Shown: positions 10,235-34,590 of the stretch, piece by piece
Layout: the number at the start of each line of letters is the position of its first letter
How positions within the stretch are numbered: the first letter of the stretch is position 1
DNA from: a virus
DNA length: 43,740 nucleotides
Virus record (IMG/VR): IMGVR_UViG_3300024988_000005
Reading direction: 5' to 3' (one strand)
The notes under the pieces: model-generated
The model's database searches: none
What the model saw: the letters and a program-made list of their open reading frames with translations, nothing else
What the model was told of the DNA's origin: nothing
Made by a program: the position numbers and the translations under genes

Positions 10235-10441
10235 TCAGCCGGCCAGCGCGGAGCGCAGGTCCTGCAGCCGGTTTTCCAGCGACGTGGCGAACGGCCGCAT
10301 CAGGCTCACCGCGCCAAAGGCATCGTCATCGCCGTGGGTTTCCAGGTAGTCGAGCGCGCTGTTGAAGCGGTGCAGGTCCTCTTCCATCTGCTGAATCGGC
10401 ATGGAAGTGGTCGCGGTGCAGTCTTGCGTGGCGGTGGCCAT
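10235..10441 (-). CDS. Hypothetical small protein (68 aa)
   Basis: ATG at 10441 is preceded by GAGGAAATCCACC (SD-like). The ORF ends just before promoter-like copy B. Confidence 0.5.
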   Translation of the reverse strand: MATATQDCTATTSMPIQQMEEDLHRFNSALDYLETHGDDDAFGAVSLMRPFATSLENRLQDLRSALAG

Positions 10442-15823: not shown

Positions 15824-18505
15824 TCAGGTACCGCGGGCGTTGGTGAAGCTGTACGCCAGGATCGACGTGAAGCGGCCACGCAGCGGCTTCGGGATGTGCA
15901 GCGAGCTGTACTCCTCGCCGTACGCGCCCTTCTTGCCCAGTGCCAGGCCGTTGCTGTCGAACAACTCATACGGCACGCCGGTCTGGAACGTCTTGGCGAT
16001 CGTGTAGAAGAAGTTCGCGCGCTGGCCGAGCAGCATGCGCTCGTCGCCCAGGTCGATGCCGGGGGCGTCCGTGGCCCAGCCCGGGATGCCCTTCACCGGC
16101 TGCAGCGTGCCCTGCGCGGTGATGCTGCTGTCCGCGCGGGAGTTCGCCTCGGTGAACTGCTCCGCATCCGTGATCATGTTGGTGAGCACGTCGCTGGCCA
16201 GGAAGAAGTCCGGCTGCACATAGCGCTGCTGGCTCATCGTGGCCTTGCGCGCACCCACCGCCTGCAGCAGCTTGTTCATCTGCTTTTCGTAGGTGCTTCC
16301 GGCGGCGATGTCGGTGTCCACCTTCAGCACGTTGGTGGTGTAGCTGTAGCCGGCGGTGACGGTGCCGGCCGGTGCGCTGGGGGCGCCGGTCTGGTCCACG
16401 ATCTGGAACGTGCCCAGGTTGTAGCTCAGCCAGCGGTAGTACTTGCCGGCCGACTGCGTGCCGCTGCCGTCGAACTCCACCAGTGCGGTGGCGCCATCCT
16501 TGATCGACACCGGCTGCTCGGCGCTGCCCACGGCGTTGCCCTTCAGGTCGCGCGCCTGGTACGGCCGTACTACCGGGAAGTTCGCCACCTTGTAGCCGTT
16601 GGTGGCACCGCTGTACGCGGTGACGGCAGTGCCGGCGGCCACGTCCACCACGCTGAAGCTGTCGCTGTCGCGCAGCATGCGGTTGGCGATGGCCGCGGCC
16701 ACCAGCTCGCGCATCACCTGCGCGTTGCTGACGATGTTGCGGGCCCAGGCGTCGAAGTTGATGATCGAGCTGTTGCGGCTGAAGTACGCCGCCTCGTTGG
16801 TCAGCTCCATCGCCAGCTTGCGCGGCTCGATGTAGGCGTAGTCCATCGCCTGAGCGATGCCGGCGCGGTGGATCGGCTGGCCCTCGTACACGATGCCGCC
16901 ATTGCGCACGGCGCTGGTGTCGCGGGTCTCGTACGGCACCGAGTGGGTCGGACCGGTGGTCGGGTCCACGGCGGCGTTCACCAGCTGCAGCACGTCCAGC
17001 CGCTGGTAGACCTGCTCGATCACCGCGCGCTGCACGCTGGCGGGGATGTTCATGTCGCCGGTGTTCACCGGGCCACCCGCCAGCATCTTGGCTTCCTGAT
17101 GCAGCTGCTGGGCATGTTCGCGGTCGAACTCGGCCAGCATGCGCTTCACGAACGGGCTCTGCTTGTCCGGCTCGGCGAACACCAGCTTGCCGTTGAACGC
17201 CTCGTTGGTCTGCTGCAAGCCCTTGCGCACGTCCTCGCTCAGCTTGCGGATGGCGTTGCCGTCGTCCACGGTGATGTGGGTGACGCCGGAGCGGATCGGG
17301 AAACCCTGCTCGGCCAGCTTGCGCGAGGCCTCGATCTGGTTGCCCAGGGCGATCTGGTTGGCGGCCAGCGCGGTCACCTGCGCATCGGTCATGTCGCCGG
17401 TGATCAGGCCGTCGACGTTCTCGCCCAGCGTCTTGCGGGTGTCTTCGGACAGGCCTGCGGCGGCGGCGATCGCGTCGCTGAACAGCTTGACCTTGGCGGC
17501 CTTGTCGGTGGCCAGCTTGGTCGCGGCGGCAACGCGGGCGGCTTCGCGCTCATCGAGCAGCTTGGTGATGTCGGCCTCGCTCAGCATCTTGCCGGCCGGG
17601 GCCGTGATGTTCAGCGTGACCGGGCCGTTGTGGCCAGCCTCGGCCAGCGTCTTGCCGGTGGCGGTGAGCTGGTCGACCAGGCCCTTGTGGGCCTCGGCAT
17701 CCTCGCCCAGGTTCTTGGCGGCCGCCTCGTAGGCGGCGCAGATGGACTTGATGGTTTCTTCGCTGAGCTTCATGGCGCGCAGGTTGGCGCGCAGGGTTTC
17801 GAGCCAGTTCATGGTGGTCTGCTCCAGGGATTCGGACAGTTGTCGGATCAGTTCCGGGTGCAAGAACACCGGGGTATTGGCGGTGCCCTCGGCGAGGGTC
17901 ACCGGGTCCATGCGCTTGATGACGGGGCGCGTGGTGAGCCCGGCGCCAAGAAGCGTCGGGCCGTGGGGCTGTTTGGTTTCGTTGTCGACGAAGTTGTCGA
18001 CGAACTCGGCGCTGAGGTACACGAAGCCGCGATCCTTCACCGCGGCCACACCGTACGGGGTGAACTCCACGTCCGCGCGCAGGCGGTTGCCGTCCACCTT
18101 CAGGCTGAGGATCTTCGCGGCGGCGCCGTCATTCGGCGCATGCGCCACGTCGATGAAGATGTCCTGGCCGTAGGCGTGCGAGTCGAAGTTGCGAACCATG
18201 CTCAGCAGCATGTCGCGGGTGATCTCGAACGTGCCGTAGCGCGGATCGCTGAACGTGCCAGTGCGGATGATGGTGACCGTGGCGCGTGGCGAGCCTTCCG
18301 CCAGCTTCACGCCGTCCAGGCCGCACATGAAGCGCTTGGCGCCGGGTGGCGGGTCATTGTTGTCCAGCCGGAAGACGCGCGGCGCGGCCGGCGGCGTGGC
18401 CAGCCCTGCCAGTGCAATCGCCATCAGTCGTTTCAGCATCGCCGTCTCCGCAAAATCGTCCCGCCGCGCCACTGCCATGGTCGCGGCGGGACCTCCCGCT
18501 GCCAT
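15824..18505 (-). CDS. Fused prohead protease (Mu gpI-like) - scaffold - major capsid protein (893 aa)
   Basis: The N-terminal third resembles Mu-like prophage protease I (IIRTGTF..., IDVAHAP). The middle is an Ala/Glu/Lys coiled coil. The C-terminal ~450 aa is capsid-like. No stop interrupts the ORF. Start is 18505 or the ATG at 18478. Confidence 0.6.
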   Translation of the reverse strand: MAAGGPAATMAVARRDDFAETAMLKRLMAIALAGLATPPAAPRVFRLDNNDPPPGAKRFMCGLDGVKLAEGSPRATVTIIRTGTFSDPRYGTFEITRDMLLSMVRNFDSHAYGQDIFIDVAHAPNDGAAAKILSLKVDGNRLRADVEFTPYGVAAVKDRGFVYLSAEFVDNFVDNETKQPHGPTLLGAGLTTRPVIKRMDPVTLAEGTANTPVFLHPELIRQLSESLEQTTMNWLETLRANLRAMKLSEETIKSICAAYEAAAKNLGEDAEAHKGLVDQLTATGKTLAEAGHNGPVTLNITAPAGKMLSEADITKLLDEREAARVAAATKLATDKAAKVKLFSDAIAAAAGLSEDTRKTLGENVDGLITGDMTDAQVTALAANQIALGNQIEASRKLAEQGFPIRSGVTHITVDDGNAIRKLSEDVRKGLQQTNEAFNGKLVFAEPDKQSPFVKRMLAEFDREHAQQLHQEAKMLAGGPVNTGDMNIPASVQRAVIEQVYQRLDVLQLVNAAVDPTTGPTHSVPYETRDTSAVRNGGIVYEGQPIHRAGIAQAMDYAYIEPRKLAMELTNEAAYFSRNSSIINFDAWARNIVSNAQVMRELVAAAIANRMLRDSDSFSVVDVAAGTAVTAYSGATNGYKVANFPVVRPYQARDLKGNAVGSAEQPVSIKDGATALVEFDGSGTQSAGKYYRWLSYNLGTFQIVDQTGAPSAPAGTVTAGYSYTTNVLKVDTDIAAGSTYEKQMNKLLQAVGARKATMSQQRYVQPDFFLASDVLTNMITDAEQFTEANSRADSSITAQGTLQPVKGIPGWATDAPGIDLGDERMLLGQRANFFYTIAKTFQTGVPYELFDSNGLALGKKGAYGEEYSSLHIPKPLRGRFTSILAYSFTNARGT

Positions 18506-18509
18506 GAAT

Positions 18510-18552
18510 GACCGTGTGCGGCGGGTTTCGGGATGTCAACGGGAAAGCGTGC
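18510..18552 (-). promoter_or_regulatory. Conserved late promoter-like element, copy C (upstream of capsid ORF)
   Basis: Minus strand reads GCACGCTTTCCCGTTGACA-N15-CACACGGTC. An ATG follows 4 nt later. Confidence 0.55.
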
Positions 18553-18712
18553 GCACCGGCGCCAACACCACCGGCACGGTGATCCAGCGCTTGCAGCGGT
18601 TGCAGCGGGCCTTGCTCTCGGTGGTGCCCAGACGAACCACGCGGGCGGTGAGCACGTTGTCCACCAGCAGCTTCTTGCCGCAGCCGGGGCAGCACAGGCC
18701 GTCGGTCTTCAC
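18536..18712 (-). CDS. Com-like zinc-ribbon protein (58 aa, GTG start; not in the supplied ORF track)
   Basis: My translation is VKTDGLCCPGCGKKLLV...ARCNRCKRWITV. The two CxxC pairs have spacing and flanks like Mu Com (CKNCNKLL...RCPRCKRHI). GTGA overlap with the upstream stop. Its own stop lies inside the TTGAC box of copy C. Confidence 0.5.
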   Translation of the reverse strand: MKTDGLCCPGCGKKLLVDNVLTARVVRLGTTESKARCNRCKRWITVPVVLAPVRTLSR

Positions 18713-19773
18713 GGCTGCGCTCCCAGCCGGTCGGCGATCTGGTACCAGGGTGCCAGCAGCTCGCTGTCGTGCAGCTGCCCGGCGCGGAACGCGTCCGCTT
18801 TCTTCTGGCCGCCGAGCACGGCGGTCTGGGTGCCGGCATCCTGCTTGCCCAGCCAGTCGAAGGCGCTCTGCTTGCCGGCACGGTCGGCGTCGGTCACCTC
18901 ATCGGCAAACACCGGCTGCAGGTAGCTGAGCGTGTTCGGGTGGGCCGGGTAGGGATGGTCGCCGGGCGGGTACACGCCAGGGCCCAGGCCATGCAGGTTG
19001 GCGGCAGCGTACAGGTCGCAAATGTCGTGCTTCGGGTGCATCGGGCTTAGCGTGAACTTCACGCCGATCACGTCCGGATGCTGCGCCACGCTGGCCACGT
19101 AGCTCTCGGTGTAGGCGCGGTTCGTCTCGGTGCGGATCACCCGCTGCGCGGCGTAGAGCACGTCGGCGGACGGGTTCACCAGCAGCTGCTCGGCGCGCGC
19201 GGCCAGCGTCGCGGCCTGCCGCGCGGCCATGCCCATGTTCAGCTCGGACGGCACCGGCGCGCCTCGGTCGATGAACTCCTGCGCCGCCTGGTAGCTGGAT
19301 TGCCCGCGCACGATGCCGTTCTCGATCGCCGCGCCCAGCTCGGTCTTCGCAGTGCTGGCCACTCGCCACAGCCGGTCGCTCAGCTGCAGGCCATCGGACG
19401 CGCGGAAGCTGGTGATCCAGGCCATGGTCTGGTTCACCAGCACATCCACGCTCAGCCCGGAGCCGCTCAGTGGCAGCACGCTGGCTCCGATGCGGGCGCT
19501 CTCCGGCAGCGCGCGGTACACGATGGCACGGTAGCGCTGCAGCAGCTCGTCGGTCTGGCCGCCCAGGAAGGCCCGCAGGCTGGGGATGTCGCCCGGCAGC
19601 ACGTCGCGGCCGCCGTCCTGCAGGCTGAGAAGCTCCAGCTTGATCGCGTTGGCGATGCGCTGCAGCAGGTCCTGCGCTGCCTTGGCCTCCTGCTCGCGGT
19701 AGGCGATCTGCCGCTGCCGCGCGGCGCGGCTGGCCTTGTCGATCAGCGCTTTCTGGGCGGCTCCGCTGGCCAT
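18709..19773 (-). CDS. Head morphogenesis protein, Mu gpF / SPP1 gp7 family (354 aa)
   Basis: VIRTETNRAY...HPKHDICD...PAHPNTLSYLQPV resembles the Phage_Mu_F signature. TGATG overlap with the portal stop. Confidence 0.65.
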   Translation of the reverse strand: MASGAAQKALIDKASRAARQRQIAYREQEAKAAQDLLQRIANAIKLELLSLQDGGRDVLPGDIPSLRAFLGGQTDELLQRYRAIVYRALPESARIGASVLPLSGSGLSVDVLVNQTMAWITSFRASDGLQLSDRLWRVASTAKTELGAAIENGIVRGQSSYQAAQEFIDRGAPVPSELNMGMAARQAATLAARAEQLLVNPSADVLYAAQRVIRTETNRAYTESYVASVAQHPDVIGVKFTLSPMHPKHDICDLYAAANLHGLGPGVYPPGDHPYPAHPNTLSYLQPVFADEVTDADRAGKQSAFDWLGKQDAGTQTAVLGGQKKADAFRAGQLHDSELLAPWYQIADRLGAQP

Positions 19774-21215
19774 CAGGGCGTGCTGGTGGTGGTGCTGATG
19801 TTGGTGGCGCTCTCGCCGGTGCGCCCGTTGCCGGGGGTCACCTTGACGATGGGCGCGCGGTTCGCGTGCGCCGGGTTCGGCGGGTTGGTGCCGTCGCTTG
19901 GCGGCGTGCCGCTGTCGCCGTTCGGGTATGGGTCGCCGGCGGCCTTTTCCTGCGCCTGGGCGCGCTCGGCGGCGGCGATGTCGATGCCGGCCGCCTCCCA
20001 TACCACCTGTTTTGGAAGGCCCAGCGCCTGCAGCTTCAGGGCGTGGTCGGCGCGCTGGTTCGGGGTGTCAGTGCGGCGCTCGGCGAACTCCACGCTGAAC
20101 TCGTAGGCGTCCGGGTTGCGGCCGCGCAGCAGCAGGTGCAGGCGGAAACCCTGCTGGTAGGTCCAGGCGGTGTTGTCCTGCAGCGCGTCGAGCTCGTCGA
20201 AGAAGTCGTTCTTCAGGTCGGCCAGCACGTCGCGGGCCAGCCCCTTGGTGTAGCCGAACAAGCCCTTCGGCGCGGGCGCGCCGGCAAAGAACGTGTCCAG
20301 CAGCATGTCCACGTCGGCGATCTGGTCCAGGTTGGCGTCGCCCTGCAGCGCGGTCACCGTGCCCTTGCGGTTCATGAAGTAGTCGCGGAAGTTGCCGGCG
20401 GCCTGGTCGCGCTCCACCTCCAGCTTGTAGTTGGCCAGATCTTCCGCGGCGGCGCCTTCCATCACATGCGACATGCGCAGCGGGGCGCGCATGCGGCGAC
20501 GTATCACCAGGTCTTCCTCGGTGCTGGTCAGCTTCTTCCACACCGCGCGGGTGGCATCGAGGTAGGGGCGGCCCATGCTGCCGAAGTCGTCGTAGTTGTT
20601 CGGCGTGAGCCGCGCATGGCTGATCTGCCACAGGGCGAAATGCACCGTGTCCTGCTCGGTGTAGATGTCGCGCTGGGTGAACGCCTTCTCCGGGTGCTCG
20701 AAGATGCCGGACTTGCCCACGTTCGGCACCATGGTCTCGGCGGGCATGCGCGCGCAGCTGATCACCTGCGACTGGCCGGCATCGAGCACCCACTGCATGC
20801 ACAGGTTGCCTTCCATCATCAGGCCGCGGATGTCGCTCTCCAGCTTGTCGCGACGGTCCAGGTGCAGGCGGCGGCAATAGCTGTCGAACTCGGTGGCCAG
20901 CCACTTGGGTTGGCCGGGCGCCACCAGCTTGATGCCGCCCTTGGCCGCGGCGCGGCTGGTGCGGCGGTGGATGGACTTCACGCGGCTGTCGAGCTGGTCC
21001 ATGTTGCGAATGTCCAGGATCACCGCGCGCAGCTCGTAATCCACCCAGAACTGGCGGTACAGGCGCTTCAGCGCATCCTCCGGCGTGCTGCGCCAGCCCT
21101 GTTCGCTGCTGCTGCGCGGCACCTCGCCGGTCAGCAACTGCTCGGCCGGCGTGTTGCCGGCGCTGGCGACGCTGGCGGTGGGTTTGCTGCCGAAGAGGCG
21201 GTCGATGATGCCCAT
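19773..21215 (-). CDS. Portal protein (480 aa)
   Basis: Call rests on size and position directly after the large terminase, and on the acidic/Pro-rich C-terminal tail. Confidence 0.6.
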   Translation of the reverse strand: MGIIDRLFGSKPTASVASAGNTPAEQLLTGEVPRSSSEQGWRSTPEDALKRLYRQFWVDYELRAVILDIRNMDQLDSRVKSIHRRTSRAAAKGGIKLVAPGQPKWLATEFDSYCRRLHLDRRDKLESDIRGLMMEGNLCMQWVLDAGQSQVISCARMPAETMVPNVGKSGIFEHPEKAFTQRDIYTEQDTVHFALWQISHARLTPNNYDDFGSMGRPYLDATRAVWKKLTSTEEDLVIRRRMRAPLRMSHVMEGAAAEDLANYKLEVERDQAAGNFRDYFMNRKGTVTALQGDANLDQIADVDMLLDTFFAGAPAPKGLFGYTKGLARDVLADLKNDFFDELDALQDNTAWTYQQGFRLHLLLRGRNPDAYEFSVEFAERRTDTPNQRADHALKLQALGLPKQVVWEAAGIDIAAAERAQAQEKAAGDPYPNGDSGTPPSDGTNPPNPAHANRAPIVKVTPGNGRTGESATNISTTTSTP

Positions 21216-21226
21216 GGCGATGGCTC

Positions 21227-22798
21227 CTATGCCGCGTGCGCGAGGAGCTTCTCGCGGCTGTGGCTCGTGGAAAGGATGATGGTGGGCGCGTGCGCGGTGC
21301 CGCGCGTGGCCAGCCCCCATACCGCGGCCATGGCGGCGTCGAAGCCGTCGTCGCCCAGTTTCGGGTTGGCCATCTTGTAGCTGCTATAGCTGGTCTTCGT
21401 GGGCTTGGCCACGATGTTCGGCAACTGCCGGGCGAACGCGCGCAGGTCGGCGGTTTCGCGGCAGGCCATGTCCTGGTCGTCGAAGTACGGCAGCACCGCG
21501 GCGTCGTTGTGGAACACCGTGCGCAGCGCGTGCGCCATCTGGTGCTTGGTCATGCCCTCGAAGCGCATCGGGCTGAACGCCCACTCCGGCCAGGTGCTGG
21601 CGGTGCTCTCGCCGTCGCCAATGGCGCGGCGGTCGATGTCGGTCAGGCCCTCGCGGAACAGCTCGTCGTTCAGCGCGGTGAGCATACCCACGCCGAAGGC
21701 GTCGCCGATGGCGTAGTCCGGGCGGAAGTACCGCCAGAACGCCACCAGGTCCTTCTGCACCTCCGGCTCACCGGTACCGGCCGGCCAGAACTTCACGAAC
21801 GGGAAGAAGATGAAGTTGCCGATCTGCTCGGCCACCACCAGCGCATGCTTCGAGCTGGCCGGGTTCTCGCCGTGGCCGGCGGCGTCGTAGCCGAAGCTGA
21901 GCACGCCGCGGCGCGGGTACTTCGCGCCGGGGAACGGCTCGGCCAGCTCCAGCCCGCTGCGCAGGCCAAGCTGCATGGCCGCGCGCACCTTGTTCTCCCA
22001 GATCAGGTTGCGGCTGCTGATGTTCTTGCACAGCAGCTGGCGGATGTATTCGTCGGGATCCAGCTCGGCCCGCATCTGCTCCATGAACTTGGCGTTGAGG
22101 ATGCCCAGCTCGATGCCAAGGTGCACGTCCACCGTGGGCAGCACGTGGTACTGCTCGCCGGCGATCATCTCGCTCAGCGTGTCGGCGCCCTTGAACACGC
22201 CGGTGATGCGGATCTCCGGCGTGTTCTCGCTGTCGGTGCTGGCGCCAAGGCGGCGCGTGGAGCCCATCATCAGCAGGAAGCGACCGTACAGCCGGTCGCG
22301 CGGCATGTCGTCCACCTCTTCCAGGCTGGCCATGGTGAGGTCGCCGCCGTCGACGTTCGCCATGATGCCGTAGGCACGCGCCATCGATCGGTTGGCGTAC
22401 TGGAAGTAGGTGTCGGCCATCTGCTGGCGGCCGCTGCGGTAGTTCAGCCAGGCGGTGAGGATGGGGCTGCGGCGGATCGCATCCAGGTGATAGTTCAGGT
22501 TCACCAGCGACTGCGCCTCACGCGGCGCCACGATGCCAAGCTCCTGGTCCGCCTTGGTGGCCAGCTTCATGTTGTTGTACATCTCCTTCACCGCCGTCTT
22601 TCCAGTGCGGCGGCTGCTGAAGTCGATGGTGTTGGGGTGCCGGTCCATCTCGATGCACTTGAGCACCTGCATCGGGTCCAGCGTCACGTTGTGCACGTGC
22701 TTGTGCCACAGCGCATGGTCATGGGCGTAACGCATCACCTCGCGCTCGGCCACGCTTTGCAACCGGTAGCGCTCGGCGCGGGAGATCCGCTCAGCCAT
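21227..22798 (-). CDS. terL: Terminase large subunit (523 aa)
   Basis: Walker A-like SSRRTGKT, Walker B-like LTMASLEEVDD, and a C-terminal nuclease-like acidic motif (GYDAAG, IGDAFG). Confidence 0.8.
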   Translation of the reverse strand: MAERISRAERYRLQSVAEREVMRYAHDHALWHKHVHNVTLDPMQVLKCIEMDRHPNTIDFSSRRTGKTAVKEMYNNMKLATKADQELGIVAPREAQSLVNLNYHLDAIRRSPILTAWLNYRSGRQQMADTYFQYANRSMARAYGIMANVDGGDLTMASLEEVDDMPRDRLYGRFLLMMGSTRRLGASTDSENTPEIRITGVFKGADTLSEMIAGEQYHVLPTVDVHLGIELGILNAKFMEQMRAELDPDEYIRQLLCKNISSRNLIWENKVRAAMQLGLRSGLELAEPFPGAKYPRRGVLSFGYDAAGHGENPASSKHALVVAEQIGNFIFFPFVKFWPAGTGEPEVQKDLVAFWRYFRPDYAIGDAFGVGMLTALNDELFREGLTDIDRRAIGDGESTASTWPEWAFSPMRFEGMTKHQMAHALRTVFHNDAAVLPYFDDQDMACRETADLRAFARQLPNIVAKPTKTSYSSYKMANPKLGDDGFDAAMAAVWGLATRGTAHAPTIILSTSHSREKLLAHAA

Positions 22799-23756
22799 TT
22801 TCGCCAGCCTGCTGCTTGTGCTCGATCAGCACCGGGTCGCGCACGGTGTTCTCGCGGCTGCGGGCGATCAGGTTGCTGAGGTCTTCCAGCGCCAGCGTGG
22901 TGCGCTTCTGGTACTCCAGCTGGCTCTCCTGCCGCTGCTGCTGGCCGGCCAGGTAGCCCACGGCATCCTCGGTGGCCTCCTTCGCCTTCGGCGTCATGCC
23001 CATGTCGCTCAGCGACAGGCCGATCTTCGCCACCCACTCGCCGATGCGCTTCAGCATCGGGTGCTCGGTCAGCACCATAATGGTTTCGCGCTCATGCGGA
23101 AGCAGCTTTCCGCTGTCATCGTCGCGACCACCTATCTGAGCCACATGGAAGCCGCCATCCTTGTCGTAGTACCAGGCTGGCGTCCTGATCGTGCTGCCGT
23201 CGCGGATCACGTCCAGGATCATCAGGTTGACGATGCTGCGCAGGTTGGCGTGCAGGTCCGCGTTCAGGTCGTTCAGCAGCTTCGGGTCGCCGGCGGTGAA
23301 CGCCAGATGGTGGGCGAAGTACAGGTCGACGCGCTTCTGGCAAGCCGTGGCGGTGAAGCAGCTGCTGAAGTATTCGCAGCCATCGCAGTCCGGGTATTTG
23401 CCCGGCCGCGCCGGCCAGTACGTGGCGGTGCGGGCGTTCAGCCCGTGCTTCAGGCCGTTGAAGCGCGTGCGTCGAGCCTCTTCCGGGGTGGGGTGGCCTT
23501 CCAGGTTCTTCGCCGTGCTGGCCAGCCCCTCGGCGGTCTTCGGCCCGGTGGCGTGTGCCCAGGCCTTCAGCAGGCCGCGCTGCTGGCGTTCCTGCTCGCA
23601 CTCCCGGCCACACTCGGGGCAGGTGCCCACGTAGCGCCAAGGATGCCATTCGTCTTCCGGCGCATCCTCCACGCGGACGGGCTTGGCCTCGAAGCGGTAG
23701 TCGCAGTCGAGGCAGTGGAACCGGACATCATCGAGGCGTGGCCGCAGCTTTCCCAT
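22791..23756 (-). CDS. Cys-rich protein in the small-terminase position (321 aa)
   Basis: N-terminal zinc-ribbon pairs (CLDCDY...CPECGREC). Overlaps the terL start by 8 nt. Assigned by position only. Confidence 0.3.
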   Translation of the reverse strand: MGKLRPRLDDVRFHCLDCDYRFEAKPVRVEDAPEDEWHPWRYVGTCPECGRECEQERQQRGLLKAWAHATGPKTAEGLASTAKNLEGHPTPEEARRTRFNGLKHGLNARTATYWPARPGKYPDCDGCEYFSSCFTATACQKRVDLYFAHHLAFTAGDPKLLNDLNADLHANLRSIVNLMILDVIRDGSTIRTPAWYYDKDGGFHVAQIGGRDDDSGKLLPHERETIMVLTEHPMLKRIGEWVAKIGLSLSDMGMTPKAKEATEDAVGYLAGQQQRQESQLEYQKRTTLALEDLSNLIARSRENTVRDPVLIEHKQQAGENG

Positions 23757-25122
23757 GCTGCATGACCGTGTGCGGGCTGGCGCCGCGGGTCAACGGGAAA
23801 GCGTGCGGGTGGTGTTCCAGCCGCGGGGCGAACCGGCGGCGCCGGGTGGCCGAATGCAGCCACGGGAACCTCTGGTGCAATGACTGCCGCAGCCGGAAGC
23901 TGCTGGCATGGCGCAGGTGGCCGGCATAGCTGGCCAGCGTGGACTGGACGCACCGAAGTTCGGCCGGCGTAGCCCGGATGAAACCGGCGCCGACGTGCCG
24001 TTGCTCCCAGCTAGCCAACGCCGATCGCAGGTGGACGGCAACGCGGCGGCGAACCAGCGTATGGGTGGGCCGCACCACGTAGCCGAGGAAGTCGATGCCA
24101 TCGGCCAGCGGGCGCAGGCGGATGTCGTCCTTCAGCACCAGGTGCAGCTCGCGCTGAAGGAAGTCGGCGATCCTGCGCTGCCAGTCGGCCAGCACCGCAC
24201 GGTCGTGGTGGACCAGCACGAAGTCGTCGACGTAGCGCACGTACCGCTTCGCGCGCAGGACGTGCTTCACGAACTGGTCCAGGCGATCGAGGTAGATGTT
24301 GGCGAACAGCTGCGAGCTGAGGTTGCCGATCGGCAGCCCGCAGCCCGGGGCAGCGTTGGCCAACCGTTTGTGTGCCGGCACCAGGGCGAACTCCGCTGGT
24401 GTGCCGCGCATCTTCACCCCGGCGGCCAGCGGCGGCCGGCGCAGCAGTGCATGGGTGGCGCGCTGCATGGGCAGCGGCACTGCATGCCGTTCCAGCACCG
24501 GCTTCAGGATGCGCCACAGCGTGGGCCGGTGGATCGAGTTGAAGAAGTTGCGGATATCGAGCTGCAGGTAGTAGCCGCCGCCCTGGCCGCTGTGCACCTG
24601 GCGGACGAACTGCTGCACGCGCCGCACGGCCGCATGGCTGCCCTTGCCGCGGCGGTTGGCATAGCTGTCGGCGATGAACCGCGGCTCCCAGATGGTTTCC
24701 AGGCGCGGAACCAGCCAGTGGTGTACCACGCGGTCGGCGAAGTCCGGCGCGTGGATCTCGCGCGCCTTGGGCCGCGTGGCCACGAAGCACACGCTGGGCC
24801 GTGGCCGCCACGTGCCGGCCTGCAACTCGCGCTGCAGCTGCAGCAGACCATCCGTCCAGCGGGCATCGAACGCGAGCTGGTTGCGGCTCGGCTGCTTTCC
24901 CCGGCGCGCCATGCGCCAGGCGTCATGGAGCGCGCGAAGCGAAACTGCCCCGGCGCCCGCCCCCTGATACTCACCGGCCGACACGACACGCACCGCCCGC
25001 ACGCAGGCCTTGTTGTTGCGGTCGTTGTTGTTGGCATTGCCGTTGTTGAAGTTGACGATCCACGCGCAGGACGGCGCCCACGCTTCCCCGCGAACTTGCG
25101 ACCTGGGCGAACAGTCCGGCAT
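23728..25122 (-). CDS. DGR reverse transcriptase (ORF as tracked is 464 aa; true start uncertain, possibly ATG at 24912)
   Basis: RT motifs: PKAREIHAPDFADRVVHH, ANRRGKGSHAA, LDIRNFFNSI, GLPIGNLSSQLFANIYL (the DGR-type IGxxxSQ) and RYVDDFVL (YxDD). The TR lies in the 5' extension of the ORF. Confidence 0.85.
   Translation of the reverse strand: MPDCSPRSQVRGEAWAPSCAWIVNFNNGNANNNDRNNKACVRAVRVVSAGEYQGAGAGAVSLRALHDAWRMARRGKQPSRNQLAFDARWTDGLLQLQRELQAGTWRPRPSVCFVATRPKAREIHAPDFADRVVHHWLVPRLETIWEPRFIADSYANRRGKGSHAAVRRVQQFVRQVHSGQGGGYYLQLDIRNFFNSIHRPTLWRILKPVLERHAVPLPMQRATHALLRRPPLAAGVKMRGTPAEFALVPAHKRLANAAPGCGLPIGNLSSQLFANIYLDRLDQFVKHVLRAKRYVRYVDDFVLVHHDRAVLADWQRRIADFLQRELHLVLKDDIRLRPLADGIDFLGYVVRPTHTLVRRRVAVHLRSALASWEQRHVGAGFIRATPAELRCVQSTLASYAGHLRHASSFRLRQSLHQRFPWLHSATRRRRFAPRLEHHPHAFPLTRGASPHTVMQHGKAAATPR
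23764..23806 (-). promoter_or_regulatory. Conserved late promoter-like element, copy D (upstream of packaging genes, inside the 3' end of the RT ORF)
   Basis: Minus strand reads GCACGCTTTCCCGTTGACC-N15-CACACGGTC. The ATG of the 321-aa gene begins 7 nt later. Confidence 0.55.
24973..25083 (-). repeat. DGR template repeat (TR)
   Basis: About 111 nt homologous to VR1 and VR2. The coding strand is AAC/A-rich (translates NFNNGNANNNDRNN). All mismatches to the VRs fall at TR adenines. Confidence 0.85.
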
Positions 25123-25140
25123 TGGAGTTGCGCGCCTTCG

Positions 25141-25578
25141 TCATGGATTGGCCCCTGCGAAAGAGGCGTCGCGGGTACTCAGTATCTGGGCACGCTCCGG
25201 CGAGGCATCGCACGCCGGATTCTGGCCCTTGGGGACTTGCAGTTGCCGCCACCAGCCGCCGGCCTGGCGGCCGAGATCCTCGGCCAACCGGATCAGCATC
25301 TCGAACTGGCGGAAGCTGGTGAACGCCCGGAGCTGGCTACCCATCTGCAGGCTCAGCTTGATCTCGTCGATCGCCCAGCGCAGCTGGTCGACCCAATGGG
25401 CCTGCCGCGGCCGGTCCCGCCATGCCCGGTGACACACGCGCACCACCGTCATGGCCTGCTGCCGCAGGTCCGTGCCGAGGGTGTACTTGTGATATCGGGC
25501 GAAGCCCCGAACCGCCTGCTCGATCTCGCGGAGCAGGCGTTCGGCGGTTCTCACGATGGGTGGCAGCGGATGGTTCAT
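25141..25578 (-). CDS. avd: Accessory variability determinant (Avd-like four-helix-bundle protein, 145 aa)
   Basis: Lies between the target genes and TR/RT, as in the Bordetella phage BPP-1 layout. Helical and basic, with an FARYHKYTLG...LRQQA motif typical of the Avd / 23S-IVS protein family. Confidence 0.7.
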   Translation of the reverse strand: MNHPLPPIVRTAERLLREIEQAVRGFARYHKYTLGTDLRQQAMTVVRVCHRAWRDRPRQAHWVDQLRWAIDEIKLSLQMGSQLRAFTSFRQFEMLIRLAEDLGRQAGGWWRQLQVPKGQNPACDASPERAQILSTRDASFAGANP

Positions 25579-25596
25579 GGGTTCAAAGAGGCAGAG

Positions 25597-25983
25597 TTAC
25601 TGACCGGCCGACACGACACGCACCGCCCGCACGCAGGCCTTGTAGTTGCGGCCGCCGCTGGAGGCACTGCCGCCGCTGAAGCTGACGATCCACGCGCAGG
25701 ACGGCGCCCACGCGCTATCCGTGCTGGTCCAGTACCAGTCGTTCTGGGTATCGGGGAATGCCTCCACGTCGATCGCCGGGCGGATGCGCGAGCGGTCGGC
25801 CAGCAGGAACAGCTCCTCGACGGTAGGCATCCGCCAATCCTTGTGCCCCGCCACATCGAGCTTCTTCGCCGCGGCGATGGCCTGCTTGTGGGTCTTGCCC
25901 GTGGCGACGGTGGCCTTGGTCCACATCAGGCCGGTCAGGGTATCGGTTACGGTGCCGTCGCCGTTGTCGGTGAATCGCTTCAT
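25597..25983 (-). CDS. DGR target protein 1, DUF1566 / C-type-lectin-fold (128 aa)
   Basis: TGLMW..., DWRMPTVEEL, WYWTST and ...ACVRAVRVV are DUF1566 hallmarks. AGGAGCACACC SD precedes the ATG at 25983. The C-terminus is VR1. Confidence 0.8.
   Translation of the reverse strand: MKRFTDNGDGTVTDTLTGLMWTKATVATGKTHKQAIAAAKKLDVAGHKDWRMPTVEELFLLADRSRIRPAIDVEAFPDTQNDWYWTSTDSAWAPSCAWIVSFSGGSASSGGRNYKACVRAVRVVSAGQ
25603..25713 (-). repeat. DGR variable repeat VR1
   Basis: Collinear with the TR (offset 630 nt). By manual alignment there are 12 substitutions, all opposite TR adenines. Confidence 0.85.
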
Positions 25984-26015
25984 GGTGTGCTCCTGGTAGA
26001 GATCAAAGAGGCCAA

Positions 26016-26444
26016 TTACTGACCGGCCGACACGACACGCACCGCCCGCACGCAGGCCTTGCCGTAGCGGTCGTTGTGGCCGGCATCGCCGCGGTCGAAG
26101 GAGACGATCCACGCGCAGGACGGCGCCCACGAACACGGCGTGCTGGTCCAGTACCAGTCGCTCTTCGTGTCGGGGAACCGCACGGTGTCGATGGCCGGGT
26201 TGTGGCGTGTGAGGTCGAGGATCGATTCCAGCTCCATGCGCGTCGGCAGGCGCCAGCCTTCGCCGAGCGCGGCGCAAGCCTTTTCGGCGGCGGCGTAGTC
26301 CACGGACTTGCCATCACAGAGGGTGGCGCTCCATTCCAGCTTCGGAGGGAGCAGCGGCGCGGGCGCGGACACGGTGATGCCAGCGGCCGGGCTATCGATG
26401 CCGATGTCGACGGTTCCTTCGGGATGGATTTTCAGGGTGAGCAT
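26016..26444 (-). CDS. DGR target protein 2, DUF1566 / C-type-lectin-fold (142 aa)
   Basis: GWRLPTRMELE, WYWTST and ...ACVRAVRVVSAGQ. AGGAGAACCCC SD. The C-terminus is VR2. Paralogue of target 1. Confidence 0.8.
   Translation of the reverse strand: MLTLKIHPEGTVDIGIDSPAAGITVSAPAPLLPPKLEWSATLCDGKSVDYAAAEKACAALGEGWRLPTRMELESILDLTRHNPAIDTVRFPDTKSDWYWTSTPCSWAPSCAWIVSFDRGDAGHNDRYGKACVRAVRVVSAGQ
26022..26131 (-). repeat. DGR variable repeat VR2
   Basis: Collinear with the TR (offset 1049 nt). By manual alignment there are 12 substitutions, all opposite TR adenines and at a different set of positions and bases from VR1. Confidence 0.85.
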
Positions 26445-26453
26445 GGGGTTCTC

Positions 26454-26774
26454 CTATGGGGTATCGGGACGGCGCACGCGGGCGCCCTGTTTCAGTTCAT
26501 CGGTGCGCATCACGCTGACCACCTTGCAATCCAGCACCACCAGGGTGGCGCCGTCGGGCAGGTGCAGGTGGCCGGTGCCGATGCTGCGGATCAGCTCGGC
26601 GCGACCGTCGCTGATCAGCATGTCGCGCAGGCGCTCCACGTCGATCCGCATCACCCGCTCCATGTACCGGACCAGTGCGTGGTCGCTGATCAGGTGCTTC
26701 TCAGGTGACCGGAGCTTCTTCGGCGTCCAGGGCTTCGGGTAATCCTTCTTCGGCCAGGATTTGTGGTGGCTCAT
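26454..26774 (-). CDS. Hypothetical protein (106 aa)
   Basis: ATGA overlap with the upstream gene. Basic N-terminus. Function unknown. Confidence 0.5.
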   Translation of the reverse strand: MSHHKSWPKKDYPKPWTPKKLRSPEKHLISDHALVRYMERVMRIDVERLRDMLISDGRAELIRSIGTGHLHLPDGATLVVLDCKVVSVMRTDELKQGARVRRPDTP

Positions 26775-27276: not shown

Positions 27277-30027
27277 CTACTCGTTGGCGGCGCGGGCCCA
27301 CTCCGGCATCTGCGTGCCGGTGGGCTCGTCGGGTTGGCTGATGTACAGGCCGTACTCGGCCAGCTTGCGCAGGCTGAGGGCGGTGAGGTGGGCGTGGCGG
27401 CGATGGCCGATGCGGCGGTCGAGCTCGTCCTTCTCGATCACGCCGGCGTGGTCCAACTGGCGCTTGAAGATGCGGCCGCTCTTCACCGGCAGGCCGTTCC
27501 ACATATCGCGCAGGCGGTTGGTGGTGCTGATGTGATCCATCACATGCTGCGGGCGCAGGATGATCACTTCCTCGCCGCTGTCGAGCACGTCAAAGGCGTA
27601 CGGGTGCAGGAACTGGTGGCTCTCGATCTCGCTGAAGGCGGTTTCGAGGATCCACACCCATGGCTCGCGGTCGCCGCTGGTCTCGGCGATGTGCTTGTTC
27701 ATCTCGGCGCGTAGGTCGCGCAGGAAGTCGCCGGTCTCGCGGGCCATGCCGGCGAACTCGCACAGCAGCGCCCAGGCCAGGGCGATGGAGCCGTAGTTGC
27801 GCACCATGCGGCTGGCGCCGGTGTCGCCGGGTCGCGCGCGGCAGCCGTCCCAGCACCACTGCTCCCATTCGGCCAGGCGCGACTGCACCTGCTCGCGGGT
27901 CAGGCTGGCGAGGAACTGCAGCCACTGCCGCACCGGGAAGCGCGGGATGCCTTCCGGCATCAGCGGGCCCTTGCGGCCGGTGAGGTCGGCGCGGATCACC
28001 TTGCCGGTGAGGCTGCGCACCGGCACGTCCTCGCCGGCCAGCAGCACCGGCGCGCTGATCAGGAACTCGGTGAGGTCGCTGCCGCGGCGGGTCAGGGTGA
28101 ACTGGTAGCTTTCCTGCAGCATCGCCACGGCCACGTTGATCACGTCCTGCCGGCGGGCCGAGATTTCCTCCCAGCCCACCGGGTGGCTGGTGTGGCACGC
28201 GCTGGTGAGCAGGCGGAACTCGGTCTGCAGGCTCTGGCCGCCGAACATCGTCATGCCGATGCTGCGTTCCAGGCGCTTGATCAGGGTGCTCTTGCCGCTG
28301 CCCTTGTCGGCCTGCACGATCATGTGCGGCCAGAAGCCGAGGAAGGCCTTCAGGTGGCCTCCCAGCGACCAGGTGAGCAACTGGGCGGCGGCGTTCTCGC
28401 GGAAGGTGGCCTGGTAGGCCTCGATCACGCGCCGGGCGTCGCGGGCCTGCCCGCTGGGGAAGCTGAGCGCGCTGTACGGGCACTGCTTCTCCGGCTCGGT
28501 GAAGTAGCAGTCCGGCCCCTCGTTCACCACTGGCTTGCCCTGGCGCCAGGCGAGGCCCACGAAGTTCAGCGCATCGCGGGCGCCGCACTCGGCGCTGCGC
28601 TCCAGCACGGTGATCATGCGGGCGAAGCGGTTGGGGTTGAACACCGGGCCGAACTTCTTCCAGTAGTCGATGTTGTACAGGCGCTCGTCGTTGAGCACGC
28701 GGCGCATCAGCTGGGCGCCGTGGCGCGCCGTCTGCACGCTCACCGCGAACACGGTGTTGGGCTGGGCGTCTTCCTCGCCGCTCATGGTGGCGGTGGCGCT
28801 CTGGATGGTCACGCGGCTCAGCGAGGCCACGCGGAAGCCGGCCAGGTCGTCGATCACCGGCAGGTCTTCGCCGCCATCCTCGTTCTTCTCCAGCTTGCTG
28901 ACGAAGCTGGTGAAGTCGAGCTTGGCGCGGAACCGCCAGTACACGGCAAAGTCGTGGCCGGGCAGGTAGACGCGCTGGATGCCCTTCGGGCCGTCGCGAC
29001 CGGCCAGGCCGGGTATCACCCAGGGTTCATGGGTTTCCAGCATGGTGCGCAGCTGGTCCAGGCCGGCGCGTTCGGCGATGTCGGCCGCGTCGTTGTAGCC
29101 CAGCTCGTACCATTCCTTCTGGTCCACCATGATCGCGCCGATGTTCAGCGCGGTCAGCGCGTCGTACAGCGCCCAGGCCGCCTTCGCGCCCGGGCGCACG
29201 CCCTTGTCGTCGGGCTCGTCGGCGTCCATGCAGATCACCACCTGCTTGCCGACCAGGAAGCGCCAGTCGATGTTGCTGGCGTTGCCGGTGCCGCGCAGCG
29301 CGATCGCCGCGCTCATCTTCAGGCCGCAGGATTCGGTGACCAGCGCGTTGATGGCGCTCTCGAAGATGTACACGCGGCGGGCGCGCTGCACGTGCTGGCG
29401 GTCCACGAACCAGGGCTGGCCATCCTTCTGGCCCAGGCTCTTGGTCTTCACCCCGCCGTTGAGCGAAGGGTCCAGGTAGCGGAAGTCCACCGCCTGCACC
29501 TGCATGTTCGCGTAGTCGCGGCACACGAATGCCACCGCCGGGCCACCATGGCCCACCACGCCCTCGGCGATGCTGTTGCTGGTCCAGGTGTTGAAGCCCA
29601 CCGCGCCGCGCTTGAGCGCCCACTCCACGGTTTCCTGCTTCACGCCGCGCTTAACCAGGTATGGCACGGCTAGCTGCGCCTGCACCTTGCACTGGTCAGC
29701 CAGGTATTCCTCGCGGCTGCGCTCGGGGCGCGGCTGGGTGTTGTCCGGCTTGTCGAAGGGGATGCTGTAGAGCTCATGCAGCCGGCGCATGGCGTCCGGC
29801 ACGTTGTCGATTTCCTCCACGAAGCGGACCAGGCTGATGCAGTCGCCGCCGTTCTCGCTGCTGAAATCCTTCCAGGCCTTGCCCGCGTCGAAGATCGAGA
29901 TGCTGGGGTTCTTGTCCGCGTGGTGCGGGCTCTTGTAATTGCCGGTTCCGCCCGGCCGTTCCAGGCCGAGTTTCTCAGCCAGATCGTGCAGGTCGATCCG
30001 CTGTTTGAGTTCGCGTATGGATGCCAT
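27277..30027 (-). CDS. Bifunctional DNA primase / P-loop helicase-like replication protein (916 aa)
   Basis: N-terminal primase-finger-like segment (KSPHHADKNPSISIF...GGDCISLV). Toprim motifs (IFESAINAL; ICMDADEPD). Walker A (DKGSGKST) in the C-terminal half. Confidence 0.7.
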   Translation of the reverse strand: MASIRELKQRIDLHDLAEKLGLERPGGTGNYKSPHHADKNPSISIFDAGKAWKDFSSENGGDCISLVRFVEEIDNVPDAMRRLHELYSIPFDKPDNTQPRPERSREEYLADQCKVQAQLAVPYLVKRGVKQETVEWALKRGAVGFNTWTSNSIAEGVVGHGGPAVAFVCRDYANMQVQAVDFRYLDPSLNGGVKTKSLGQKDGQPWFVDRQHVQRARRVYIFESAINALVTESCGLKMSAAIALRGTGNASNIDWRFLVGKQVVICMDADEPDDKGVRPGAKAAWALYDALTALNIGAIMVDQKEWYELGYNDAADIAERAGLDQLRTMLETHEPWVIPGLAGRDGPKGIQRVYLPGHDFAVYWRFRAKLDFTSFVSKLEKNEDGGEDLPVIDDLAGFRVASLSRVTIQSATATMSGEEDAQPNTVFAVSVQTARHGAQLMRRVLNDERLYNIDYWKKFGPVFNPNRFARMITVLERSAECGARDALNFVGLAWRQGKPVVNEGPDCYFTEPEKQCPYSALSFPSGQARDARRVIEAYQATFRENAAAQLLTWSLGGHLKAFLGFWPHMIVQADKGSGKSTLIKRLERSIGMTMFGGQSLQTEFRLLTSACHTSHPVGWEEISARRQDVINVAVAMLQESYQFTLTRRGSDLTEFLISAPVLLAGEDVPVRSLTGKVIRADLTGRKGPLMPEGIPRFPVRQWLQFLASLTREQVQSRLAEWEQWCWDGCRARPGDTGASRMVRNYGSIALAWALLCEFAGMARETGDFLRDLRAEMNKHIAETSGDREPWVWILETAFSEIESHQFLHPYAFDVLDSGEEVIILRPQHVMDHISTTNRLRDMWNGLPVKSGRIFKRQLDHAGVIEKDELDRRIGHRRHAHLTALSLRKLAEYGLYISQPDEPTGTQMPEWARAANE

Positions 30028-33294: not shown

Positions 33295-33557
33295 GCGGCA
33301 CCGCCTACACGTGCGACGGCCATCACCACGCGATCGCGCATGGCATTGCGCGGATCATCGATGCGGAACTCGACGTGCTGCAGGAGCTGCTCCGTAGCCT
33401 CGGTCAGCTCGTCCACGGCGGTGGCCACGTCACGCACGGATTGAGCGCGCTTTTCCATGAGGATCGCGAACTCAGAGTTGGTGCAGCCATCGGCGATGCC
33501 CTGCAAGCCATCGGCGATTTGCGACAGCACCGCCTTGACGTCGATGCACCCGCTCAT
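33291..33557 (-). CDS. Hypothetical helical protein (88 aa)
   Basis: ATGA overlap with the recombinase stop. Confidence 0.5.
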   Translation of the reverse strand: MSGCIDVKAVLSQIADGLQGIADGCTNSEFAILMEKRAQSVRDVATAVDELTEATEQLLQHVEFRIDDPRNAMRDRVVMAVARVGGAA

Positions 33558-34171
33558 CGCGCCAGCTCCAGCGCATCCTCGACCGTCTCGCGGTCGGGCA
33601 GCGTGTAGATCACCGTGCTCTCGCGGCTGCGCTGGCCCAGCACCACCTGCACGATGCCCTGCGGGTCGCGCGCCTCGCTGCGAGCCATTACGCGCTTGGC
33701 CAGGGTATGGCGCAGCCAGTGCGGGCTGGCAGACACCTGAAGGCCGGCCTCGGCCACCCACATGGCCATGCGCGCCTGGTAGCTGCGCACGGACATGCCA
33801 CGGTGGTTGCGGCTCATTACCAGCGGCTGGTCGGGGTGGGCGCCATAGCCCATGTCGGCGCGGATCTTCACCAGGGCTTTCAGGCTGGCCATGGCGCGGG
33901 TATTCAGCGGCACTTCGTAGCCGCGGCGGCCCTTGGCGTGCTCGTCGACCAGGTGCAGACGCTTGCGGCGCAGCGCGGCCTGGGCATGGCCCAGCGTGAC
34001 GCCGGCCATGCTGCCAATGCGGATGCCGGTCTGCCGCAGCAGATCCATCCATTCCGCGTCGCGGCGCGCCAGCACGTCGGCGAACTGCCGCACGTGCTTC
34101 ATCAGCTGCTTTTCTTCTGCCTCGGTGAGGTAGCGCTCGAACACGGCGCGCTGGGTGATGGCGTTCAGCAT
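33554..34171 (-). CDS. Mini tyrosine recombinase, catalytic domain only (205 aa)
   Basis: TGIRIGS (Arg I), HWLRHT (H-x-x-R) and ...STVIYT (Tyr) in the correct order. GGAGGTGGCGAA precedes the ATG at 34171. Confidence 0.65.
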   Translation of the reverse strand: MLNAITQRAVFERYLTEAEEKQLMKHVRQFADVLARRDAEWMDLLRQTGIRIGSMAGVTLGHAQAALRRKRLHLVDEHAKGRRGYEVPLNTRAMASLKALVKIRADMGYGAHPDQPLVMSRNHRGMSVRSYQARMAMWVAEAGLQVSASPHWLRHTLAKRVMARSEARDPQGIVQVVLGQRSRESTVIYTLPDRETVEDALELAR

Positions 34172-34590
34172 TTCGCCACCTCCGCGCCGGCTGCGTTGAG
34201 CAACTGGGTGCGCTGCCACTGGCGGGCCTCGCACAGCGCGGCGACCAGCAGGCTGGCCGTGCCGATGTGCACGCGCAGGTGGGCGGCACCGCTGATGATC
34301 CACAACAGGCTGTCGGTGACCAGGTTGCCGCGGTCACGCAGCTCCTGCAGGTTGATCTGCAGTTCCTCGCCGCTGTCCAGGTGCAGCGGCGGACGCACGC
34401 GATCGCCGCCGTCTGACAACGTCATGACGCGGGCGATCTCCTCGATCACCTGGTCGCGGTCGACGTTCTCCACCTGCCACACGAACGGGCCGGTGCTGAT
34501 GCACGTCATCGGCTGGCCCGGGTGCACGATCACCTCGATGTTGCCGTCGACGCTGTCGATCTGGCGCAGGAACAGTTCTTCGATGCTCAC
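34165..34590 (-). CDS. Hypothetical protein (141 aa, GTG start)
   Basis: GTGA overlap with the upstream stop. Confidence 0.45.
   Translation of the reverse strand: MSIEELFLRQIDSVDGNIEVIVHPGQPMTCISTGPFVWQVENVDRDQVIEEIARVMTLSDGGDRVRPPLHLDSGEELQINLQELRDRGNLVTDSLLWIISGAAHLRVHIGTASLLVAALCEARQWQRTQLLNAAGAEVAKC

Follow-up and report, generated by a model that had tools for sequence, protein, structure and literature searches.

Among natural systems that hypermutate chosen proteins in prokaryotes, diversity-generating retroelements (DGRs) are, to our knowledge, the only one. In phages they have been read almost exclusively as tail-fibre tropism switches, and receptor binding by Mtd of phage BPP-1 is the only phage DGR role that we know to have been proven by experiment. 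Minimal lectin-fold targets that lack an export signal and lie away from tail genes nevertheless form a large catalogued class, which has never been explained. Here we analyse a DGR of this kind in the IMG/VR virus record IMGVR_UViG_3300024988_000005 (43.7 kb, 66% GC, almost every gene on the minus strand; this whole stretch of DNA is called the window below), in which a single template repeat (TR) serves two small adjacent target genes, T1 and T2.

The DGR of BPP-1 (mtd-avd-TR-brt) resembles the window locus in its order of target, Avd, TR and reverse transcriptase (RT), in its adenine-specific mutagenesis, in a C-terminal variable repeat (VR) on a C-type lectin fold, and in its residence in a temperate phage. 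Mtd, however, measures 381 aa, carries N-terminal β-prism and β-sandwich domains for trimerisation and tail-fibre attachment, and is encoded at the end of the tail module, whereas the two window targets (128 and 142 aa) are devoid of Mtd-like attachment domains and lie 12–20 kb from the tail genes. Likewise similar is category 'd' (CLec2) of Wu et al. 2018, comprising DUF1566 and DUF823 as well as Fib_succ_major, in which the VR overlaps the C-terminal DUF1566 domain (PMC5758913, PMC6642488). This category makes up 14% of DGRs, about half of them short and domain-only, and two targets occur in ~13% of DGRs, with up to eight in tandem in Stenotrophomonas (PMC5758913). Yan et al. 2019 added further DGRs with one TR and two DUF1566 targets (PMC6642488). 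The multi-target DGR of Stenotrophomonas sp. SKA14, where five of the six VR-holding open reading frames (ORFs) are DUF1566 proteins (PMC6642488), has the host order Xanthomonadales/Lysobacterales in common with the window. The layout is, in other words, already known, and short domain-only DUF1566 targets as well as two-target cassettes are common. The two surveys do not analyse the phage location of short targets, the pairing of T2 with T1 or cassette mobility, all of which are analysed here; what is new in the present work is the mobility of the cassette, the recent turnover of both targets in a sister cassette, and the placement away from tail genes together with T2/T1 pairing.

One TR with two targets is also found in the gut phages nd4 and nd12 (Baykov et al. 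2023, PMC10743442), whose target2 is a single globular C-lec domain without Mtd attachment domains and with a role that the authors call unclear. Those targets are DUF6273 proteins of 234–294 aa, target2 being paired with a tentaclin that contains immunoglobulin-like (Ig) domains, whereas the window, a gammaproteobacterial prophage, encodes minimal Lcl_C/DUF1566 paralogues. The Bacuni phages of Bacteroides uniformis (PMC8143477) similarly combine one TR with two DUF1566-class targets, but theirs are fimbrial-tip-like over at least 60% of their length, one is encoded remotely, and VR changes correlate with host range. By sequence as well as structure, T1 and T2 are best matched by the Lcl_C domain (8q4e) of Legionella pneumophila Lcl, a secreted collagen-like adhesin whose collagen stalk they lack. 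The reference DGR target of their VR class is LdtA of Legionella (PMC5758913); unlike LdtA, an outer-membrane lipoprotein with an export signal, and unlike the surface lipoprotein TvpA, T1 and T2 have neither signal peptide nor lipobox.

A DGR cassette with two lectin-fold targets

A repeat finder run on the window returned three copies of one 116-nt unit, corresponding to the TR (24968–25083, minus strand like all parts of the cassette) and to two VRs at the 3′ ends of the targets. VR1 (25598–25713; 89% identity to the TR) ends T1, a 128-aa ORF from an ATG at 25983 to a TAA at 25597, and VR2 (26017–26132; 88% identity) ends T2, a 142-aa ATG-to-TAA ORF at 26444–26016; both ORFs have an AGGAG-like ribosome-binding site (RBS). 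A scan of the whole window revealed no further VR on either strand; the DGR accordingly does not target the tail genes. Over a core of ~110 nt, each VR carries 12 mismatches to the TR, and 24 of 24 fall at TR adenines; as A makes up 21% of the TR, the chance of this outcome is ~4e-17. Both VRs are changed at six of these sites, mostly not to the same base, and each VR has six further sites of its own. The TR contains 24 adenines and nine AAY codons in the target reading frame, and the mutable codons (these nine plus ATC, GAC and AAG) all lie in the final 38 codons of the target. The resulting diversity potential is ~1e13 protein variants per target, with a stop possible at only one codon.

Both VRs and the TR contain a common, invariant GC-rich segment of ~40 nt (3′-terminal and IMH-like in VR2) and then split, reading ...GGCCGGTCAGTAA in the VRs and ...GGCCGGTGAGTAT in the TR, a divergence that fits a putative initiation of mutagenic homing (IMH)/IMH* pair, the element that sets the direction of transfer in DGRs. 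A BPP-1-like cruciform or hairpin 3′ of the VRs was considered and dropped: a 7-bp stem was present at VR2 only and not kept at VR1, and folding energies downstream of the VRs were no better than those of shuffled sequences.

DGRs have an accessory protein, Avd or HRDC, encoded beside the TR. Between T1 and the TR, the canonical place for Avd, a 145-aa ORF (25141–25578) matches Pfam bAvd (9e-8) and NCBIfam DivGenRetAVD (6e-10) over its full length, with both matches below the curated cut-offs. The RT ORF (23728–25122; 464 aa as called) matches RVT_1 (2e-14). DGR-type RTs are marked by YxDD in the active site together with the motif [ILV]GxxxSQ, and the window RT carries YVDD at residue 297 and IGNLSSQ at residue 265; against models of group II introns, retrons and defence-associated reverse transcriptases (DRTs), all scores were far below the cut-offs. 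As called, the ORF includes the TR in frame and therefore opens with ~50 residues of DUF1566-like peptide (…AWAPSCAWIVNFNNGNANNNDRNNKACVRAVRVVSAGE…). Profile searches flag the RT as 'DUF1566', and TR read-through likewise occurs in nearly all related cassettes; translation of the RT proper probably begins at a GTG that lies inside the TR or directly behind it. Predictions yielded no promoter or terminator beyond chance around the cassette in the window. The annotation shows the locus to be, at the level of sequence, a complete DGR: a self-contained accessory cassette of ~2.6 kb consisting of T2, T1, Avd, TR and RT.

T1 and T2 can be assigned with confidence to the Lcl_C/DUF1566 proteins, with a predicted C-type lectin fold. 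Pfam Lcl_C (PF07603, formerly DUF1566) scores 109 bits for T1 (2e-31, over residues 10–122) and 82 bits for T2 (5e-23) against a gathering threshold of 34.9. AlphaFold2 models, built on alignments of 66–68 homologues, reached a predicted local distance difference test (pLDDT) score of 95.5 for T1 and 84.7 for T2. With both predicted structures, the best Foldseek match was the C-terminal domain of Legionella Lcl (8q4e, also returned by a sequence search of the PDB), at probability 1.00 and a template modelling (TM) score of 0.65 for T1 (E=6e-6) and 0.56 for T2; C-type lectins of snake venoms and Bd2740 of Bdellovibrio came next.

T1 is a bare lectin domain. In T2, the domain is preceded by residues 1–34, comprising a 16-residue β-hairpin (pLDDT 64–72) and a low-confidence Pro/Ala linker. 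By eye, the modelled hairpin looks like the first hairpin of canonical DUF1566, set apart by an insertion; it matched none of the described Pfam families even at E≤10. A heuristic hydropathy scan detected no signal peptide, hydrophobic N-terminus or lipobox in T1 or T2 (maximum 12-residue hydropathy within the first 45 aa of 0.83 and 1.38, respectively), and among 240 homologues the same kind of scan found a marginal hydrophobic segment in one and a lipobox in none. Outside the VRs, the bodies of T1 and T2 are acidic in 13 cassettes of different phages (the window and loci from L005 to L171), with isoelectric points of 4.1–6.7 and a net charge down to −11. A T1–T2 heterodimer held by charge complementarity was considered and found no support, both members being acidic in the 13 pairs. 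The family alignments were also inspected for conserved disulfide pairs, which might hint at proteins living outside the cell; a single cysteine, C104 of T2, is nearly invariant. Searches of T1, T2 and Avd against the PADLOC models of known anti-phage defence returned no match.

Much of this had been anticipated by an earlier sequence-only reading of the same DNA. Its two small tandem targets proved exact in their coordinates, ORFs and RBSs; the single TR proposed for both VRs agrees with the three-copy repeat and the lack of a third VR in the window; and the VR, noted as the last ~37 codons, occupies the C-terminal ~38 in both proteins. The private and shared adenine sites bear out its suggestion of independent diversification. 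That each protein is a single DUF1566/C-type-lectin domain is upheld by Pfam scores above the gathering threshold, by Foldseek and by structure prediction of each protein alone, a check that had been proposed. The claim that signal peptide, anchor and fibre domains are missing holds in the scans and models, to which the short hairpin and linker of T2 have to be added.

Mobility, turnover and distribution of the cassette

In one blastn alignment of 2568 nt (88% identity), the cassette matches a copy in a Mu-like prophage, where gam lies on one side of it and gemA/mor on the other. The alignment begins exactly at the T2 ATG and stops near the 3′ end of the RT, with zero similarity beyond, and delimits a portable extent of 23882–26444 (minus strand) in the window. 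The copy has the same five parts, and its T2, T1 and Avd ORFs are identical in length to those of the window. Between the virion module of this Mu-like phage (a 501-aa sheath-sized ORF and baseplate-sized ORFs) and the window, there is no detectable protein in common. Only one of 66 related Mu-like contigs contains the cassette, and in a sister phage (L007) it directly follows the primase. These alignments demonstrate movement of the cassette as a unit between phages whose virions appear unrelated.

The gene upstream of T2 thus differs in the three phages, being a 120-aa ORF in the window, Gam in the Mu-like copy and primase in L007. For this reason an upstream extension or fusion of T2 was rejected, and the statement of the sequence-only reading that no larger structural gene is joined to the targets stands. 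In the window, the 120-aa ORF (phrog_8252) ends in a TAG stop that is in frame with the T2 ATG, 9 nt apart (26444–26456, minus strand), and overlaps the T2 RBS (TAGGAG). Read-through would join this ORF to T2; given the different upstream neighbours, such a fusion is not conserved.

By the established DGR mechanism, RT and Avd would copy the TR RNA into cDNA with errors at adenines, and by mutagenic retrohoming the mutagenised cDNA would take the place of the VR with which each target ends at its 3′ side, rewriting ~12 codons on one face of both paralogous lectin-fold proteins. The VRs of the window itself are constant in >50 assemblies, and variants of the T2 cluster in public assemblies differ only outside the VR. 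This constancy is uninformative on activity because the assemblies are clonal, the three 20-kb loci checked being 100% identical to the window. A sister cassette is more revealing. Loci L005 and L011 represent one Mu-like prophage from two metagenomes, and no difference separates them in the T2 body, avd or TR. Outside the VRs, 32 of 7263 positions differ (0.44%; 99.6% identity), while within them (9852–9967 and 10271–10386 at the locus) there are 13 differences in VR2 and 19 in VR1, all at TR-adenine sites. Because the VRs differ solely at such sites, both targets of this cassette type are, as read from these genomes, being diversified in nature. The L005/L011 pair can also serve as an existing example from nature of a DGR acting on two targets. 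Furthermore, the TRs of the window and L005 show one non-A difference, and the two VRs of each cassette carry their own TR's base, so both VRs were copied anew from their own TR once the lineages had separated. Between the window and the Mu-like copy, the TR is conserved at 115 of 116 positions and the Avd–TR spacer at 96%, as against 83–91% for the rest of the cassette.

To gauge how common the layout is, 80 related loci (77 from IMG/VR and three metagenome contigs) were surveyed using a strict ungapped test for DGR-served targets. At least one small DUF1566 target was found in 37 of the 80, and two to four targets in 24 of these 37. As the layout also features in the published DGR surveys (PMC5758913, PMC6642488), the rarity implied by the sequence-only reading was overstated. 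Among species-representative genomes, the order T2-type, T1-type, Avd, RT is also present in gammaproteobacterial prophages, those of Lysobacter, Lysobacterales, Haliea and Rheinheimera, and variant arrangements of the cassette exist in Marinobacter, Arenimonas and Pseudoxanthomonas. Since the order recurs across genera, T2 and T1 are best described as two conserved paralogous lineages in a fixed order, not as products of a recent duplication, and this conserved order suggests that the two work as a pair. In 50,697 GenBank phage records no close homologue was found (one match of 29% identity, E=7e-3), plasmid matches were weak, and a representative-library search returned mostly giant DUF1566 proteins with many repeats, which made it uninformative on the small family.

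Flanking genes were examined at 43 loci, namely 30 non-redundant DGR-served viral loci and 13 loci with a small DUF1566 gene but without a detected DGR. Flanks of the 30 encode primase, DnaB, IstB, RdgC, MuA/B and CII, as well as tyrosine and serine integrases, DNA methylases, and ParB-like and HerA-like proteins; those of the 13 encode YqaJ, ERF, RecT, Lar, RusA, methylase and ParB. No tail, baseplate or fibre family occurred among the flank matches in the 43 loci, most flanking ORFs being unmatched. At two lambdoid loci (L087 and L088), the small DUF1566 gene belongs to an operon leading from the cI/cro switch towards recombination and integrase genes, and in L088 it lies downstream of, and co-directional with, a cI-like repressor. 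The L087 gene (10001–10621) encodes an in-frame fusion of an AlpA-type helix-turn-helix (HTH) domain with DUF1566 (P0042, 206 aa), within a cI/cro-to-ERF/integrase operon and with no RT nearby.

In one lineage of these cassettes (L029–L032, L036 and L045), an AlpA-like HTH ORF follows or overlaps the RT 3′ end, ~1 kb past the RT start. A 924-nt Logan contig encodes a 197-aa fusion of a Tad2-like domain (Thoeris anti-defence 2, PF11195) to a T2-type DUF1566 (P0134), which may be an assembly or stop-loss artefact. As a singleton, it was not used as an anti-defence link, and no Tad2-like ORF stood beside any surveyed cassette.

Genome layout and host of the window phage

The exact T1 sequence is found as BGP10_12355 in the metagenome-assembled genome of Rhodanobacter sp. 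68-29, on contigs of up to 963 kb, which identifies the window as a prophage; the element is, by its genomic features, a temperate siphovirus-like prophage of Rhodanobacter. Its gene order, read in the direction of transcription, runs from integrases and a serine recombinase through a CII-like regulator, a 916-aa primase (30027–27277, minus strand) and three small ORFs to T2 and T1. The 145-aa Avd-like gene, TR and RT are followed by a 321-aa ORF, a 523-aa terminase-like gene, the portal and head genes and, after the head, by the tail tube, the 1475-aa tape measure, a 457-aa protein in which three He_PIG Ig domains are combined with SPRY, and distal tail proteins of 1147 and 283 aa. The tail tube begins 12 kb from the targets, and the 457-aa and 1147-aa tail proteins are ~20 kb off, in agreement with the earlier placement of the targets between replication and packaging genes, >10 kb from the tail fibre genes.

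Several genes of the structural and integration modules (all on the minus strand) are worth recording. The 523-aa terminase-like ORF (21227–22798) is without a Pfam, PHROG or NCBIfam match, and the 515-aa portal (19773–21320) is without a Pfam match and has weak PHROG matches. The 321-aa Cys-rich ORF between RT and terminase (22791–23756) matched no family searched; its homologue in the phage yong1 (see below) is labelled 'putative glutamine amidotransferase', a label unsupported by our searches. An 893-aa head protein (15824–18505) starts with an N-terminal Mu-like prophage protease I domain (Mu-like_Pro, 5e-9) and is long enough for a protease-scaffold-capsid fusion. Three recombinases are encoded at 33554–34303, 37502–39163 and 39858–40961: two are members of the tyrosine integrase family (249 and 367 aa), and the other is a large serine recombinase of 553 aa.

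Among deposited phages the nearest, vB_MaeS-yong1 (a 'Microcystis phage'; MT855965.1, L001), has primase, packaging and head genes in common with the window and lacks its segment 23725–27336, the cassette region. At 66.7% GC, much of yong1 is collinear with window positions 15842–23724 and 27337–30019, at ~65–76% nucleotide identity, and phages of Burkholderia and Ralstonia are further matches of its primase. That yong1 has a cyanobacterial host, as stated, seems doubtful, a heterotroph out of the Microcystis culture being likelier.

Possible roles of the targets

The reading that we favour, although with somewhat less than even confidence, is that T1 and T2 are free, soluble, acidic, exportless binders, most likely intracellular and evolvable versus variable host or competitor proteins. 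They would function independently of any dedicated virion anchor and would act within the infected or lysogenic cell, binding for instance host-range or defence determinants of host or competitor, and DGR variation would adapt the phage population to intracellular rather than surface diversity. The portability of the cassette between unrelated virions argues for free intracellular binders without a dedicated virion anchor, as do its consistent position among replication, recombination, methylase and lysogeny genes, the absence of export and attachment modules, and the fusion of one relative to a DNA-binding HTH. A bolder form of this idea, in our view unlikely as a whole, is that a portable DGR of gammaproteobacterial temperate phages hypermutates a cytoplasmic, early-expressed lectin pair acting as 'intrabodies' versus variable defence or takeover targets, by binding and neutralising or by sensing them.

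A number of points weigh against an intracellular role. Most flanking ORFs have no Pfam match, so unrecognised structural genes are possible among them; in the window, Pfam misses even terminase and portal. The genes from primase to terminase form an uninterrupted co-directional array with no predicted promoter or terminator, which would permit late co-transcription. Some large phage proteins that resemble tail fibres also end in DUF1566 domains (phrog_4245; BFVD matches), T1 and T2 have no PADLOC match, and the Tad2-like::DUF1566 fusion comes from one 924-nt contig. The window's own VRs show no polymorphism, though the assemblies are clonal. Finally, every experimentally characterised DGR variable protein known to us (Mtd, LdtA, TvpA and the Bacteroides pilus tips) acts outside the cytoplasm.

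This precedent leads to the explanation that we rank next, a possible but on balance improbable one: T1 and T2 might be accessory receptor-binding or decoration proteins, held non-covalently on the virion by their conserved face, with the VR face turned towards the host, at the tail tip, the fibres or the capsid. They would thereby do Mtd's job without Mtd's N-terminal domains. The only phage DGR role known to us as experimentally proven, that of BPP-1 Mtd, is of this kind, all characterised DGR targets are extracellular, and terminal DUF1566 domains occur on large phage proteins of tail-fibre-like type. VR differences follow host range in the Bacuni phages with their DUF1566 targets (PMC8143477), and the same role has been proposed for the single-domain C-lec 'target2' of gut phages (PMC10743442). 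In the window, the Ig (He_PIG) and SPRY domains of the tail proteins might offer docking sites and the T2 hairpin and linker a tether, but T1 lacks any attachment module. Nor would a docking partner be conserved, as the 88%-identical cassette resides in two phages without a detectable common structural protein; in addition, none of the 43 surveyed loci has a tail-family match beside the cassette, and one relative is fused in frame with a DNA-binding HTH. Release at lysis would place the proteins outside the cell without any virion: as free extracellular lectins, they might, for instance, cover the receptors of debris or of cells already infected, or attach to exopolysaccharide. We consider this very unlikely. 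It would fit the absent export signal, a function portable between phages and the extracellular ligands bound by all characterised lectin-fold DGR targets, but it has no precedent and no supporting sequence feature was found. Moreover, selection on a diffusible public good can hardly be tied to the encoding genotype, a link that DGR diversification needs.

Protection of the lysogen, which we hold to be quite unlikely, shares the intracellular location with the favoured reading and would make T1 and T2 hypervariable sensors or neutralisers of competitor phages or mobile elements, in the manner of superinfection exclusion or defence. Lambdoid phages place lysogen-expressed genes such as rexAB downstream of cI, a position comparable to that of the L088 gene behind its co-directional cI-like repressor, and the window element is a prophage (chromosomal contigs of up to 963 kb). 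It has also been proposed that cellular conflict systems use lectin-fold sensors diversified by DGRs (PMC7159879, PMC10053308). Yet no effector domain or partner gene is conserved beside the targets, PADLOC gave no match, the Mu-like copy lies in a presumed lytic early transcript, and no own promoter is predicted in the window. The least probable alternative is that the window cassette is a dormant or decaying DGR whose targets have no selected function. Its VRs are identical in >50 assemblies, and Wu et al. set aside more than half of candidate DGRs as defective (PMC5758913). This constancy is nonetheless uninformative, the three examined 20-kb loci being 100% identical to the window, and decay would sit poorly with five intact components free of frameshifts and stops, a perfectly adenine-specific mismatch pattern, a TR conserved at 99% against 83–91% for the rest of the cassette, and very recent turnover in both VRs of sister cassettes.

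The locus is a clean, intact example in the cultivable-type genus Rhodanobacter, with an active-looking sister cassette in an unrelated phage, and offers a practical model for the role of free DGR-diversified binders. Should T1 and T2 turn out to be virion decorations, they would represent an ordinary variant of the BPP-1 paradigm. If they are intracellular, phage hypermutation would reach into intracellular arms races, and binder engineering would gain a natural scaffold of minimal size (~120 aa, ~1e13 variants). If the intrabody reading is true, DGRs would tune intracellular host range, beyond adsorption.

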